Positions 30,815 through 35,443 of a stretch of DNA of 64,000 bases are shown here, one piece after another; within the stretch, counting starts at the first letter, position 1; each line of letters starts with the position of its first letter. Source of the DNA: Verrucomicrobiota bacterium (GTDB lineage Bacteria; Verrucomicrobiota; Verrucomicrobiia; Chthoniobacterales; UBA10450); assembly GCA_041167505.1 (NCBI GenBank), contig JBEEHR010000023.1, forward strand, positions 21,214-85,213. The letters are read 5' to 3'. Position numbers and translations under genes: made by a program. The notes beneath the pieces were generated by a model, which ran no database searches, had not been told where the DNA came from, and saw only the letters and a program-made list of their open reading frames with translations.

Positions 30815-31171
30815 CTACTTCTTCTCTTTTTTGTCGGCCGCCGATTCCTTCGCCTGATCCTTCGGCGTCTCTATCTTGACGGAGACGATCTTCCCGGTTT
30901 TCGCGTCCACCTGCACCTCAGTGATGTTTTTCGCACCCGGCGTCGAGATATCGAACGACCAGACGAGTTTGCCGTGCTCCCTCTCCAGTTCGCTGGATTT
31001 GATTTTGCCGTTTGCGACTTTGGCGAGCGCGGTTTTCTGGGCGGCTGCCTGCGTCACTTTCGCTTCCGCCTGCAACTGCGCCTGTGTCTCTTTCGATGCG
31101 GCCCGGATAGAAGTCGTTGCACCCGCGACCAGGATCGCCGCGGCGATGGATAGAACAGTGATTGTCTTCAT
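30815..31171 (-). CDS. PepSY domain protein
   Basis: Signal peptide. AAQKTALAKVANGKIKSSELEREHGKLVWSFDI...VDAKTGKIV is PepSY-like. Confidence 0.7.
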   Translation of the reverse strand: MKTITVLSIAAAILVAGATTSIRAASKETQAQLQAEAKVTQAAAQKTALAKVANGKIKSSELEREHGKLVWSFDISTPGAKNITEVQVDAKTGKIVSVKIETPKDQAKESAADKKEKK

Positions 31172-31191: not shown

Positions 31192-32220
31192 CTATTGCGG
31201 TCCGTAAACCAGCAGCTTCTGGGTATTCGGCAAAATCGTCGGCCGCCCAGGCGATGCGCCCGGCGATGGCGATGGCGCCGGCTGAAATTGCGCGGTCGGC
31301 AAATAAATCCGGTGCGTCGCCGGATCGATCGCGATGGTTCGCGCTCCGCGTTCCGTCTTGAGCGTTTGCACCACGGTCAGCTTGTCCGGCCCTTCTTCTT
31401 TCGCGATCGTAGTCGTCCCGTCGCCGCACGAGGCGAACGCGAGCTGGCTCGCATCGTCGAACGCCGCGCCGTCCACACCGGTGCCGATCGGCACGCTTCC
31501 CACTACCTTGCCCGATTCGGTGTCGACCATCTCCATCATCTTGTTATGGCAGGTGGTGAACAAACGGTGATGCGCCGCATCGAGGGCAATCCCGCTCGGC
31601 TCTTCGCCGGGTGCGAGCGGCCAGTGTGCCGTCACTTCATGTTTCGCCGCGTCGATCACCTCCACCTCGCTCTTGTCCTCGATATTGATATAGATCCGGC
31701 CAGCCGCGCTATCGACCGCCGCGAACTCCGGGCTGCCCCCGAGCGGGATCGTGGCCACTACCTTGACCGTTTTTGCGTCGATCACCGTCGCCGAGTTTCC
31801 GCTGTGATTGAAAGCGTAAACCTCGCCTCGTTTCGGATCGTAGACGATCGCGTCCGGGTTCTTACCGCTGTCGAGTCTTGAAATCGTCTTCAGCGTCTTG
31901 AGATCGACCACGCTGATCTTGTCTTCCTTGCCGTTGGTGGAAAACCCGAAGCCGGCTTCCGGCGCCGCGACGAACCCATGCACCCCCGGCGTATCCGTGA
32001 TCTCACCTGCTACCGCGTTCTTCTCCAGATCGACCACGACCACTTTCGTCGCGTGCGACAGGTAAAGCCGGTGCGCCGCCGAATCGACGGTCAGAATATC
32101 CCAGCCCCCTTCGCCGCCGATCGGAATTTCGTTGAGGAATTTGTAAGGCCCATCACCCGCGCCCATCGCATTCTGAAGACCGAGAGCCCACGCCACCGCC
32201 AGTAAAGTTCGAAAACGCAT
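31192..32220 (-). CDS. YncE/YVTN-type beta-propeller repeat protein
   Basis: Signal peptide and repeated hydrophobic-D-x-x-x-x-R-hydrophobic-Y blades (HRLYLSH, GEVYAFN, GRIYINI, HRLFTTC, HRIYLPT). Confidence 0.7.
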   Translation of the reverse strand: MRFRTLLAVAWALGLQNAMGAGDGPYKFLNEIPIGGEGGWDILTVDSAAHRLYLSHATKVVVVDLEKNAVAGEITDTPGVHGFVAAPEAGFGFSTNGKEDKISVVDLKTLKTISRLDSGKNPDAIVYDPKRGEVYAFNHSGNSATVIDAKTVKVVATIPLGGSPEFAAVDSAAGRIYINIEDKSEVEVIDAAKHEVTAHWPLAPGEEPSGIALDAAHHRLFTTCHNKMMEMVDTESGKVVGSVPIGTGVDGAAFDDASQLAFASCGDGTTTIAKEEGPDKLTVVQTLKTERGARTIAIDPATHRIYLPTAQFQPAPSPSPGASPGRPTILPNTQKLLVYGPQ

Positions 32221-32456
32221 TCAGCGTACTATCACAATTTCCCGAAAACGCAGGTGCGCTCCGGCTTCCGGTTGAAAAGCGCATCCGGGCGATCCGGTTT
32301 TTGATTCCAATTCCGGCTTGTCCGGAGCCAGCGCGCCGGTCAACATCCTGAGCATGTTCCCCGGGCCGAAAACCGTTCCCCTGAAATACATTCCTGATAG
32401 ATGGGAAAATCCCGCCTTTGAATGCGGGATTTTCAGATCTACTTCTCGTTAGGCGT

Positions 32457-32825
32457 ATGACAACCCTCTTGCGAAGAACCTCGCTTTGCATCGTTGCCGC
32501 GGCTGCACTTGGCGCCTGCCCAGTGGTTGCCGCTGACGCGTGGATCCCGGTTGTCGCGGACTCTCGCCTCAAGTATTCGATGAGTGCGCGCGACCAGCTT
32601 CAGATACGACGGCTTATCAGCTCCCTCGGCATTTGTGAGCCGATCAGCACTATCGACATGGATTCCGCACACCGCGCGACCGTAAACTGCGGTCCAATTG
32701 ACGCGCACCCTAAGAAGGGCCGCGACCTTGGGCACTGGATAAAGGTCACCGTTGTCCGCAGACATGGTCACTGGTTCGTGGACAGGCCTTCCATACACAT
32801 GACAGAGCGCCTATGGGGTATGTAG
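32457..32825 (+). CDS. cassette 1 ORF: hypothetical secreted protein
   Basis: The ATG lies 2 nt after GTTAGGC. Signal peptide MTTLLRRTSLCIVAAAALGACPVVAADA. No recognizable family. Confidence 0.6.
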   Translation: MTTLLRRTSLCIVAAAALGACPVVAADAWIPVVADSRLKYSMSARDQLQIRRLISSLGICEPISTIDMDSAHRATVNCGPIDAHPKKGRDLGHWIKVTVVRRHGHWFVDRPSIHMTERLWGM

Positions 32826-32843
32826 AGTGTTCACGCGCGAAAC

Positions 32844-32967
32844 GCCTAACCATGCGATGGAGCGAACGGTCTGGCAGCTTTGATTCCTCACCTTCCATGA
32901 AATTCCACCCTCAATCCGCAGCGACGCGCTCTCCCGCCAGCCGTCGCTCATCTTGTTCTCGTTAGAT
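32844..32967 (+). repeat. attC site 1 (124 bp)
   Basis: R'' is GCCTAAC and R' is GTTAGAT. L'' GATG-G-AGCGA-A-CGG pairs with L' CCGTCGCTCATC, leaving two bulged bases. The stem extends through CTGGC/GCCAG. Confidence 0.8.
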
Positions 32968-32970
32968 CGC

Positions 32971-33525
32971 ATGGCCACTCGTCCTAGCATCGCATTAGCG
33001 GTTGCACTTCTCGCGTTGCTTAACGGGACAGCTCGCGCTGATGTCGCACTTCACTCGCAGCGCCGAAACATTTCCATTCGCGTCACTCCTCCGTCCGGCT
33101 GGGTTGGTCCCGGTTATGATGCTCGGCCGAGCTACGATTCCTTCGGCTGGAGCCACGGGAAGGATCCCGCAGCATGTTACCTGCAGGTTCGCTTCGATCC
33201 ATACACAGACGAGCCCGGTGACCGCCACTCTGCCGAGGACATCGCCGTGCACTGGAACACCACTCCATTGGCCAAGATTCGGGAGCAGTACAAAAGAGAG
33301 TTCCAGAAGTCTCAGGTTGATTTTATTGCGATCGTCACGCTCGCGGGCAAGCCCGCTCGCGTTCATGCCGTTTACAGCGCGGACGGAAATTTCTATGCGG
33401 CCGAGATACTCGACGAGGGCACAGTCATTTCGTTTGAGCTTCGTTCCCCGAGTCGTCACGAGTTGGAGCGTCACAAGGCAGGCTTTCTCTCGTTCCTGCG
33501 CTCAGTCCAAATCCGTGCGATCTAA
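32971..33525 (+). CDS. cassette 2 ORF: hypothetical secreted protein
   Basis: The ATG lies 3 nt after GTTAGAT. Signal peptide MATRPSIALAVALLALLNGTARA. The stop lies inside R'' of attC 2. Confidence 0.6.
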   Translation: MATRPSIALAVALLALLNGTARADVALHSQRRNISIRVTPPSGWVGPGYDARPSYDSFGWSHGKDPAACYLQVRFDPYTDEPGDRHSAEDIAVHWNTTPLAKIREQYKREFQKSQVDFIAIVTLAGKPARVHAVYSADGNFYAAEILDEGTVISFELRSPSRHELERHKAGFLSFLRSVQIRAI

Positions 33526-33643
33526 CCATACGATGGAGCGAACGGCGGACCGCCGTACGCTCCACTTTTGAGATGATTTCCACACTTCCACTCCGAGCTA
33601 CGCACGCCCTCGTCCGCCGTCGCTCATCTTGTTCTCGTTAGGC
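33520..33643 (+). repeat. attC site 2 (124 bp)
   Basis: R'' is ATCTAAC, the complement of the preceding GTTAGAT, and it contains the cassette-2 stop TAA. R' is GTTAGGC. The L''/L' pair is identical to site 1. The stem extension is CGGAC/GTCCG, which co-varies with site 1. Confidence 0.8.
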
Positions 33644-33650
33644 CTACGCC

Positions 33651-34712
33651 ATGGCAACCGACGCCATCCAATACGGAGGCTTCTGGCGACGCTTTGCGGC
33701 GTTCTGGCTGGATTTCCTCGTCCTTCTGCCACTTGGCGCCGTCGCTCTTTGGGGCAGCCAACATTATCGCCTATTCTCCGTCTACTATGCGCTGCCCGGT
33801 ACACTCGTTGGATTGTTTTACCACGTATATCTTGTTCGCCGCTTCGGTGGCACTCCCGGGAAGCTCATCATGCGCCTACGCATCCGGAAAGTATCGGGCG
33901 AACTCGTGGGCTATCGCGAGGCGCTCCTAAGATATGCTCCCGAGATTCTGCTCGGTTTATTGATGTCCCTCGCTCTCATCTCTCCTCTTCTCCAGATGAC
34001 GGATGCAGAGTTTCATGCTCTCTCATTTATGGAGCGCTCGAAGCATTTGGTCGACCTTGCGCCGAGGTGGTTCAAGTCCGTTCAGATTCTTCAACATGTC
34101 TGGATCTCGAGTGAGTTTATTGTGCTGCTCAGCAACAGAAAGAGACGAGCCTTGCACGACTTCATCGCTGGTACCGTCGTTATTCTCGACGGGCCTGGTG
34201 AAGCGATGGAGCGAACGCCGGACCTCCCTGCGTCCACGTTTCGAGACGACTCCCACCCTTCCACTGCGAGCGACCCGAGCCCTCGTCCGTCGCCGCCCAG
34301 CTTGTTCTCGTTAGGCCCTAACGCCACATCGGTTTATCGCCTGCTCATCGGACTCCGAGGATGCTGGCTCCTCGTCGAGTGGCTCTTTGACTGGGGAGCG
34401 AGATCGCACGTCACGGCGTTTACGTCGACCCAGTCCTTTGCCCCCCTGATCGCGGATAGTATCGCAGTCGCGGTCTGGCTCACTTTGCTCGCAGGGATGT
34501 GGTTCTTCCAGCGCTGGGCGCGCGTCGTATTCGTCCCGTTTAGCGCATTTGCGGTGCTGTCGATTCCGTTCTGGTGGCACAGATATTCGCTATCGTCGCC
34601 GCCGTCCTTCGTGCCGGTCCTCGGTGTAATTATGCTGCTCGCGACCGGTGCCATTCTCGCGATGTCCTTTCTGCCTCCGGTGCGGGATGAGTTCGCCACC
34701 CAACAAGCCTAA
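33651..34712 (+). CDS. cassette 3+4 read-through ORF: RDD-family membrane domain fused via translated attC to a second polytopic membrane module
   Basis: RDD hallmarks are present (WRRFAAFWLDFLV ... GTPGKLIMRLRI ... RRALHDFIAGTVVI). Residues ~182-222 are the translation of attC 3. The C-terminal ~130 aa has 3-4 hydrophobic helices. Confidence 0.6.
   Translation: MATDAIQYGGFWRRFAAFWLDFLVLLPLGAVALWGSQHYRLFSVYYALPGTLVGLFYHVYLVRRFGGTPGKLIMRLRIRKVSGELVGYREALLRYAPEILLGLLMSLALISPLLQMTDAEFHALSFMERSKHLVDLAPRWFKSVQILQHVWISSEFIVLLSNRKRRALHDFIAGTVVILDGPGEAMERTPDLPASTFRDDSHPSTASDPSPRPSPPSLFSLGPNATSVYRLLIGLRGCWLLVEWLFDWGARSHVTAFTSTQSFAPLIADSIAVAVWLTLLAGMWFFQRWARVVFVPFSAFAVLSIPFWWHRYSLSSPPSFVPVLGVIMLLATGAILAMSFLPPVRDEFATQQA
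34193..34316 (+). repeat. attC site 3, degenerate (R'' lost, L' altered)
   Basis: Same length and same central sequence as sites 1 and 2. R'' reads GCCTGGT and L' reads CCGTCGCCGCCCAGC. R' GTTAGGC is intact. The whole unit lies inside ORF 33651..34712. Confidence 0.65.
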
Positions 34713-34743
34713 CCAGCCAATGCAGCGAACCGCTGACCGCTCC
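34707..34743 (+). repeat. attC site 4, 5' half only
   Basis: R'' GCCTAAC contains the stop TAA, and the left arm CAGCCAATGCAGCGAACCGCTGACC is homologous to the other sites. No complementary right arm or GTTRRRY follows within 130 nt. Confidence 0.55.
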
Positions 34744-34867
34744 GCGTTCTAGTTTTCGATGACTTTCACATTCAATTTGCAGCGGGCGGACCTGAAACCC
34801 GGCGACCTCCTTCAACCCGGCAAGGAGCCCATCGACGACTGAGCTGCTTCCGGCGGGACGGCAGGCC

Positions 34868-35443
34868 CTATTTCTTTCCGCCGAGCAGACCTTCCTTCAG
34901 CCCGGAGTTCGGCGGATTCTTTCCGATCCAGCAACGAATGAGCTGGTGACTGAACGCCTTGTCGCCGACCGAGGCCGCCTTTTGCCCGCGGATCATGAGA
35001 TCCACGCCGTCTGCGAGGAAACGAACGGACATGGTTTCGCCTTTCTTCATGTCTTTGAGGAGGCCTTGCAGCTTGCTGAGGTGCGGCTTGAGTTCGGTGC
35101 ATCCGGCCACGCAGTTCTTCTCGAACCCTTCCCCAAACGCTTCCGCCATTTGCTTCGCACTCACGTCGCGCATGAAGACCATGTCGATGCTCTTGGCCTG
35201 GTCGGAATTCGCGATCGCCTCACCGTCGCCTGACGGTTTTTCCAGATAGAGCCCGGCGGCGTAGACATTGACCTTGAGAATGGTCGCCTGGCGCAAGCCG
35301 GCGCCGTTCAGCTTCAGGCTTTTCCCTCCGACGGAAACCTGGTCGGGCAATTTCACGCCGCTGATCTCGGCGGCTGACGCGTTGCTGGCCAGGAAAGCCA
35401 GCGCACAAACGCCGGACAGAACGAATTTGGTTTTGGATTTCAT
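34868..35443 (-). CDS. chalcone isomerase-like (CHI fold) family protein, secreted
   Basis: Signal peptide. KLNGAGLRQATILKVNVYAAGLYLE is typical of bacterial CHI-like proteins. Confidence 0.7.
   Translation of the reverse strand: MKSKTKFVLSGVCALAFLASNASAAEISGVKLPDQVSVGGKSLKLNGAGLRQATILKVNVYAAGLYLEKPSGDGEAIANSDQAKSIDMVFMRDVSAKQMAEAFGEGFEKNCVAGCTELKPHLSKLQGLLKDMKKGETMSVRFLADGVDLMIRGQKAASVGDKAFSHQLIRCWIGKNPPNSGLKEGLLGGKK

Follow-up and report, generated by a model that had tools for sequence, protein, structure and literature searches.

A 64,000-nt stretch of the genome of a Verrucomicrobiota bacterium (contig JBEEHR010000023.1, positions 21,214 to 85,213; hereafter the window) carries a series of similar repeat units between two chromosomal genes, which raises the question of whether an integron once stood here and what became of its integrase gene, intI. 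The initial annotation, made from the letters of the sequence, read positions 32221-34867 as an integrase-less integron cassette array with four attC sites. We conclude that the locus is very probably the remnant of a chromosomal integron from a Chthoniobacterales-type (Verrucomicrobiota) soil bacterium, consisting of an attI-like site and four cassettes with their attC sites, without intI. In IntegronFinder terms the block of ~2.6 kb is a CALIN element (clustered attC sites with no integron integrase) and, more exactly, it is an intI-deleted integron remnant; relics of this type are already well known, and the locus is not a new system. Because the array keeps an attI-like site, we read it as an integron that lost intI rather than as a random piece of an array. 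The evidence lies in the anatomy of the sites, the association of the same site family with integrases in related genomes, the complementarity of the cores of individual cassettes, the absence of intI from the 64-kb window, and an empty site in close relatives.

A repeat search of the window returned a 114-nt family with copies at 32855, 33531 and 34204, spaced 676 and 673 nt apart, and a shorter family from the 5' part of the unit, which adds a fourth copy at 34707. All four units lie on the + strand and each is found 3' of a + strand open reading frame (ORF). The coordinates, shared orientation and neighbouring ORFs described in the initial annotation were thus reproduced, as were its cassette lengths of 513, 676 and 673 nt, measured from core to core. 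The 13-mer GATGGAGCGAACG has exact occurrences in the three full units only within the 64 kb, and a covariance model built from foreign copies of the unit (R1, described below) gave four matches on both strands of the window, corresponding to attC1 through attC4, and nothing else (Table 1). At 123-124 nt, the full sites fall inside the 57-141 nt range of attC lengths. The cores RYYYAAC and GTTRRRY are present at the ends of attC1 and attC2, as had been reported, but not in attC3, which begins with GCCTGGT, or in attC4, which has no R'. The initial count of four sites, three of them full-length, therefore stands as to the number of sites, but only two are intact and the third is decayed: its alignment to R1 flagged non-canonical pairs in the R box and the L box, and it was compared with an intact homologue in a related locus (L059). 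The fourth unit, initially described as a 37-nt 5' half, is longer than that, since its homology to other family members ends at ~34784-34803, with 87% identity to their 5' parts up to 34784.

The cores also match in a manner characteristic of cassettes. The core that opens a cassette is the complement of the R'' that closes the same cassette at three places: GTTAGGC at 32448 with GCCTAAC at 32844, GTTAGAT at 32961 with ATCTAAC at 33520, and GTTAGGC at 34310 with GCCTAAC at 34707. Such pairs arise because the integrase crosses over at the G/TT of the core, which leaves the final six bases of every R' in the cassette that follows. Within the units, one stem segment differs with compensation, reading CTGGC/GCCAG in unit 1 and CGGAC/GTCCG in unit 2.

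The same unit is found in other genomes. A search of a single genome from each species for the pattern GATGGAGCGAACN{70,100}TCTCGTTAG yielded at least 119 stretches outside the window's genome, nearly all from Chthoniobacterales, 'Verrucomicrobiae' or Candidatus Udaeobacter metagenome-assembled genomes; these loci carry L numbers here, and all counts of copies, cassettes and integrase loci below are among the matches listed. The exact pattern gave up to 11 matches per 8-kb block and a looser one up to 15 copies per block, and a slightly relaxed pattern yielded at least 417 family copies, mostly 123-124 nt long. RYYYAAC, which the search pattern did not impose, starts 90% of these 417 copies. 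GTTRRRY ends 94% of them, a figure in which GTTAG was imposed by the pattern and only the last two bases are independent. The copies form one-strand arrays with about one ORF per interval and a median cassette length of 534 nt, and none of 120 loci had copies on both strands. When the three variable core bases were compared between the opening R' and the closing R'' of the same cassette, they were fully complementary in 224 of 292 cassettes (77%). In contrast, the control comparison of R'' with R' of one linear unit gave complementarity in 133 of 417 (32%). We conclude that cassette-wise core complementarity across arrays generalises the three pairs of the window, which the initial annotation had taken as a signature of cassette insertion, and that generic repeats would not show it.

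The structure of the sites was assessed on an alignment (A2) of 100 non-redundant bottom strands, none from the window. R1 was built from A2 and a specified attC structure, and contains no window sequence. RNAalifold, run on A2, predicted the L-box stem with double compensatory changes in 10 of 13 pairs. With the full attC structure specified, 89% of the cells in A2 were paired, compared with 26-38% when the partners were slid by one to three columns; 13 of the 18 L-box pairs had double compensatory changes, and none of 500 shuffles reached any observed measure. Two bases of the L'' arm are unpaired and invariant in A2. Numbered as by Nivina et al. (PMC5027507), they are a C at bottom-strand position 16 and, beyond a stem of 6 bp, a T at position 23. 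In described attC sites the extrahelical bases occupy positions ~16 and 23/24, also separated by a 6-bp stem, the first being usually a G and the last a conserved T (PMC5027507). The bulged bases and the co-varying stem segment, both of which had been noticed within the window, are properties of the family. Scanned with R1, the three full units of the window scored E-values from 1e-33 to 1e-19, an outcome in favour of the initial annotation on the covariance-model check that it proposed, with R1 in the role of the attC model.

Arrays of this unit adjoin integron integrases in relatives. At least nine full-length integrases lie beside family arrays and score 455-493 bits against TIGR02249 (cut-off 265 bits), aligning over positions 1-314 of 315, and many strong IntI homologues are found among the translated ORFs of family loci. 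One array-adjoining integrase has the NCBI title 'integron integrase [Chthoniobacterales bacterium]', and the Joint Genome Institute (JGI) uses like names. The gene is divergent from the cassettes in L053, L010, L014, L115 and L043 and co-directional with them in L057, L071, L087, L106 and L117, and the arrays that adjoin intI in relatives hold at least 13-19 cassettes. Given these integrase-adjoining arrays of the same unit, and given the cassette-wise match of the cores, attC1 and attC2 are predicted substrates of such an enzyme.

No tyrosine recombinase was detected in the 64-kb window with IntI1 and XerC sequences and nine IntI relatives as queries, as the initial annotation had stated; as a positive control, IntI1 recovered XerC at E 3e-25. 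By the definition of Cury et al. 2016 (PMC4889954), a CALIN has at least two clustered attC sites and no integron integrase at 4 kb or less. Here, two intact and two decayed attC sites lie in 2 kb, and neither IntI nor any other tyrosine recombinase is present within ~30 kb on either side. A complete integron would have intI adjoining attI and the array; such a gene is missing from the 64-kb window, where at most a stub of ~16 codons stands beside the attI-like site.

The head of the array holds a site that goes beyond the initial annotation, an attI-like hairpin followed by GTTAGGC upstream of cassette 1. It shares 87% identity with the part of L115 that separates the intI start codon from the first cassette, and 90-97% with L077 and L137. 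The same architecture adjoins intI in L053, L010, L014 and L043, and in each of these the core is complementary to the R'' of the first attC, just as the window core GTTAGGC is complementary to the R'' of attC1. When window positions 32352-32460 were compared with the intI-proximal sequences of L131, L132 and L134, identity of 79-85% ran leftwards from the core and ended at 32352-32354. This triplet reads CAT on the + strand and, on the minus strand, gives the ATG with which intI begins. A tblastn alignment to the IntI segment of L115 extends weakly for ~16 codons to 32308, its score coming mostly from the translated attI part. The hairpin covaries, lies between a ..CAAC motif and GTTAGRY, and looks like a short attC. 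A sigma-70-like scan of the attI and spacer region found no promoter and no excess over shuffles, with a consensus of the E. coli type. An exact 23-mer of the attI-like element occurs in ten metagenome contigs besides the window, in about eight distinct sequence contexts, most of them without an intact intI.

Close relatives of the window lack the block, so that the proposed presence/absence comparison also came out in favour of the initial annotation. Orthologues of the YncE-like gene on its left are 95, 92 and 90% identical in L121, L125 and L124, and in all three the chalcone-isomerase-like (CHI-like) gene lies directly beside it, in agreement with the initial view that the flanks are ordinary chromosomal genes. 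BLASTN aligned the flanks at 83-90% identity and placed 32-50 nt in the three relatives where the window has 32262-34868; the range 32221-34867, proposed before any comparison with relatives, matches this window-specific block almost exactly. Homology to the empty-site relatives ends at 32257-32263 on the left. Since the native spacer differs from one relative to another, the left junction carries an uncertainty of ~45 nt. The native sequence in front of the YncE-like gene includes a conserved block, GCGCACCTGCG(T/C)TTTCG.GAAA.TGTG.TA.TACG. From these alignments we conclude that the integron-derived block is best read as a lineage-specific insertion, a triple loss being less parsimonious. We also considered a target-site duplication or microhomology but do not claim one, since the possible repeat GCCGGAA, seen at each junction, has just 7 nt and the native spacer varies too much.

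Several observations weigh against an intI-deleted integron remnant or narrow what can be said of it. The DNA folding energies of the bottom strands were not better than those of shuffles (z = -0.4, -2.4 and +0.07), and attC1 alone of the units takes the canonical bulged hairpin as its minimum-energy fold. Because single-sequence folding was not significant, the structural case rests on covariation and not on thermodynamics. The first bulged base is a C, where the literature has 'usually a G', while the rest of the bulge geometry is canonical. On the bottom strand, the unpaired spacer between the R and L boxes is GCATG (5 nt) in the R'' arm and GAGAACAA (8 nt) in the R' arm, the latter slightly exceeding the usual 5-6 nt. 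The classification of the units as attC sites stands on the lineage-specific model R1, as a stand-in for the attC model of IntegronFinder. At the head of the array, tblastn with the IntI proteins of nine relatives at a permissive threshold found no significant IntI protein remnant at 32101-32460. The term integrase-less holds for the 64-kb window, which is part of a 506-kb contig from JGI soil metagenome 3300044810. Finally, the sequence fits a deletion of intI in place as well as the insertion of a fragment already without intI.

With these points in mind, we propose the following history. An integron integrase would have assembled the cassettes by recombining the folded bottom strand of an attC with attI or another attC at the G/TT of the core, as integron biology suggests. 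The intI gene would then have been lost, beginning near its start codon, at a time that may precede or follow the arrival of the block at its present position. Since then the array would have been decaying, with attC3 losing its AAC triplet and stem pairs, attC4 becoming truncated, and cassettes 3 and 4 merging into one frame. Cassettes 3 and 4 are probably fixed, attC3 and attC4 being beyond recombination. The attI-like site, attC1 and attC2 look intact, and an integrase elsewhere in the genome, if there is one, could presumably excise cassettes 1 and 2 in trans.

This last point bears on an alternative, in which the array is not a relic but the active satellite of a complete integron elsewhere in the genome, whose integrase exchanges cassettes in trans through attI, attC1 and attC2. 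The good condition of these three sites is as such a satellite would have it, and precedents exist: OY970345.1, a complete chromosome of the same lineage, combines an intI-linked array with at least two other attC clusters, and about half of CALIN elements sit in IntI-encoding genomes (PMC4889954). The decay or truncation of two of the four attC sites, together with the fusion of two cassettes, speaks against turnover still going on at the distal end, and no integrase is known for this genome, of which the 64-kb window was searched. We therefore regard an active satellite as possible, though the less likely reading. An integrase could also have placed circular cassettes at a secondary genomic site (attG), with no ancestral integron at the locus. 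This route is documented (bioRxiv 10.1101/2022.09.11.507474; PMC4889954) and would account for a block that is an insertion relative to close relatives. It does not account for the ends of the block. On the left, ~100 nt are homologous to sequence of intI-bearing relatives, namely their attI site, intI-attI spacer and intI start codon, which circular cassettes do not carry. On the right, in place of a clean G/TT junction, a truncated attC gives way to 64 nt of unrelated DNA. We consider the attG route very improbable here.

The least probable explanation, which we would accept only with great surprise, is that the units have no tie to integrons and are dispersed repeats like repetitive extragenic palindromic (REP) elements or miniature inverted-repeat transposable elements (MITEs), or a structured RNA that acts as a terminator or regulator. 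The units are indeed intergenic, palindromic and repeated, and covariation by itself would fit an RNA structure too. Yet across the at least 119 loci every copy belongs to a one-strand array in which about one ORF fills each interval, the arrays adjoin integron integrases, and the cores are complementary cassette by cassette. The window has no further copy in its 64 kb, a scan of the region against Rfam (E up to 10) gave two chance-level matches and no attC family, and no T-run terminator signal rose above shuffles. The initial argument that these are not generic REP or MITE copies is borne out by the one-strand arrays, the integrase linkage and the lack of other copies in the window. Taken together, we conclude that an integron remnant from which intI was deleted is the reading that best fits the locus, the parts of which are listed in Table 1.

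Table 1. Parts of the integron remnant and its flanks (window coordinates)
Feature	Position	Strand	Description
YncE-like beta-propeller gene, native left flank	31192-32220	-	weak Pfam matches to YNCE and Cytochrom_D1
Native upstream region of the YncE-like gene	32221-32261	.	conserved in array-free relatives
Integron remnant as a whole, window-specific, ~2.6 kb	32262-34868	+	left boundary uncertain by ~45 nt
Possible intI stub	32308-32354	-	start ATG at 32354-32352, up to ~16 codons
intI-attI spacer	32355-32392	.	79-85% identical to the spacer of L131, L132 and L134; usual place for integron promoters
attI-like site	32393-32454	+	hairpin arms 32398-32418 and 32421-32441 (21-nt inverted repeat), then CTACTTCTC, core GTTAGGC at 32448-32454
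Cassette 1, 513 nt	32449-32961	+	ORF 32457-32825, 122 amino acids; hydrophobic N-terminus like a signal peptide; no Pfam family
attC1, intact	32844-32967	+	R'' GCCTAAC, R' GTTAGAT; R1 105.4 bits, E 1.9e-27
Cassette 2, 676 nt	32962-33637	+	ORF 32971-33525, 184 amino acids; hydrophobic N-terminus like a signal peptide; no Pfam family
attC2, intact	33520-33643	+	R'' ATCTAAC, R' GTTAGGC; R1 126.3 bits, E 2.6e-33
Cassette 3, 673 nt	33638-34310	+	RDD-family membrane protein; ORF from 33651, no stop before attC3
353-amino-acid ORF	33651-34712	+	RDD protein, attC3-encoded linker (~42 amino acids) and cassette-4 membrane protein
attC3, decayed	34193-34316	+	R'' GCCTGGT (AAC triplet gone), L' mismatched; R1 75.7 bits, E 3.9e-19
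Cassette 4	34311-34803	+	membrane-protein ORF without its own start codon, ends at 34712 (TAA inside R'')
attC4, truncated	34707-34803	+	R'' GCCTAAC, L'' and most of the loop; without L' and R'; R1 14.1 bits, E 0.07
Junction sequence, attC4 to the CHI-like stop codon	34804-34867	.	no homology in relatives or the attC family
Chalcone-isomerase-like gene, native right flank	34868-35443	-	Pfam Chalcone_3, E 6.6e-41

The cassette 1 protein has weak homologues (31% amino-acid identity) in L139 and L038, and the stop codon TAA of the cassette 2 ORF falls inside R''. Cassette 3 matches Pfam RDD (PF06271) at E 7.8e-16 over amino acids 8-174, and its counterpart in the L059 array, 80% identical in nucleotides, lies between two intact attC sites. 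Homologues of cassette 4 with 41-44% amino-acid identity are separate cassettes in L117, L130 and L136, where each starts at an ATG or GTG of its own, immediately past the attC. Cassettes 3 and 4 of the window read as one ORF because attC3 has no in-frame stop and the start of cassette 4 is lost, and the resulting 353-amino-acid frame was annotated by JGI as a single gene. By our own estimate, an open frame in the right phase would occur by chance in roughly a few per cent of cases, and a fusion protein is plausible from the reading frame. We had also considered that the RDD gene reads through owing to loss of the R'' TAA. This idea was dropped, as the L059 homologue shows that TAA to be out of the frame of the cassette.

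The contexts of the attI-like site vary among related genomes. Among the contigs with the attI type of the window (L130-L139 and L077), L132 carries a 50-amino-acid N-terminal intI stub, L130/L136 a 78-amino-acid C-terminal stub, and L135/L077, L137, L133, L138 and L139 no intI at all; the L139 element directly adjoins a truncated frame that resembles M48 peptidases (HEIAHIAARH). The position of the hairpin also differs. It lies ~40 nt from the intI start codon in L115 (1930-2028), L053, L010, L014 and L043, and directly after the intI stop codon in the co-directional L087, L106, L071, L057 and L136 (8090-8395). In the co-directional layout the intI stop (TGA/TAG) is inside a c[cg]TGATAGA motif that opens the hairpin, and intI plus hairpin resembles a cassette with a short attC. 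Thus the orientation of intI relative to the attI-like site flips among related genomes. It is conceivable, though we find it doubtful, that attI-headed integrase-less arrays are a recurrent and possibly mobile Chthoniobacterales unit and not the product of a one-off deletion; this suggestion stands on the ten contigs and on visual comparison of their junctions. Should the attI-like site recombine as a folded strand at either end, the changes in intI orientation and the movement of entire arrays would both have a possible explanation.

Other observations concern the surroundings of the block and the variety of the sites. A 56-amino-acid minus-strand ORF at 32221-32391 covers the putative intI stub, and its stop abuts the YncE-like ATG (TGAATG); the abutment is probably fortuitous because the last ~40 nt of this ORF are native upstream sequence conserved in relatives. 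In L050 (CAWHRN010000004.1, 1362-2386), attC sites, one of them just 71 nt, lie upstream of the orthologous YncE-like gene. L050 is syntenic with the window for the YncE-like gene, an outer-membrane-protein-like (OMP-like) gene and a DUF347 gene; we considered whether its array and that of the window descend from one ancestral integron, but its attC sites are oppositely oriented and nothing else is common to both arrays. One decayed attC is found upstream of the YncE-like gene in the relative L122. It seems that sequence upstream of this gene readily comes to contain DNA derived from integrons. A PepSY-domain gene at 30815-31171, between the YncE-like and OMP-like genes of the window, is also present in L122, L124 and L125 and absent from L121 and L050, which makes it a second small presence/absence difference in the neighbourhood. 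Longer attC sites of ~192 nt occur in the family (L135 3346-3538, L137 4058-4250, L080 4943-5134 and 5642-5834). These have an insertion of ~70 nt in the variable loop; its sequence is partly conserved across genomes (…GATTCGC…CTCAGCCTTCGGCCTAGGGTCCATGTCGC…) and suggests that a small element is nested there.

The general novelty of the locus is small, as many phyla, Verrucomicrobia included, are already known to have integrons and attC clusters without an integrase (PMC4889954). Its value is as a clean example of the origin and decay of a CALIN, in which the attI-like site and spacer are kept, the break falls at the start codon of the integrase, empty sites exist in relatives, and a mutated attC, a truncated attC and fused cassettes stand side by side. 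Chthoniobacterales are abundant in soil, and their attC family is well supported; its alignment, covariation and model could help to find cassettes in metagenomes from soil. We found no publication on Chthoniobacterales attC sites specifically, while the integrases of the lineage are already annotated in public records. The invariant C at position 16, in place of the usual G, may have a bearing on integrase specificity.

How does the locus compare with known systems? Verrucomicrobia are among the integron-bearing phyla, loss of intI is among the proposed origins of CALIN elements, 83% of these elements hold no more than five attC sites, and recognisable intI pseudogenes were near only 5% of them in the 2016 survey (PMC4889954). 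Like CALIN elements, the locus has at least two attC sites in a small array, lacks an integrase close by and carries cassettes whose function is unknown. It differs in keeping an attI-like site and the intI-attI spacer, in a break at about the intI start codon, and in having an empty site in close relatives. An attI site lies between intI and the first cassette and carries the GTTRRRY core where that cassette begins; by the position and core of its counterparts in relatives, the element at the head of the array is a candidate for such a site, with a covarying hairpin that is unusual among described attI sites. With sedentary chromosomal integrons, such as the Vibrio cholerae superintegron and its Vibrio cholerae repeats (VCR) of ~123-129 nt, the locus has in common long (~123 nt), mutually similar attC sites, a chromosomal location and cassettes mostly of unknown function. 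Unlike that type, the window array has only four cassettes and no integrase, is not conserved in close relatives, and has a C and not a G as its first bulged base. Fused gene cassettes are known from class 1 integrons, where they were joined after loss or decay of the intervening attC. The window resembles them in the loss of recombination determinants from attC3 and in the joining of cassettes 3 and 4 into a single unit, and differs from them in that the decayed attC3 appears to be kept in frame as a linker of ~42 amino acids between two membrane proteins.

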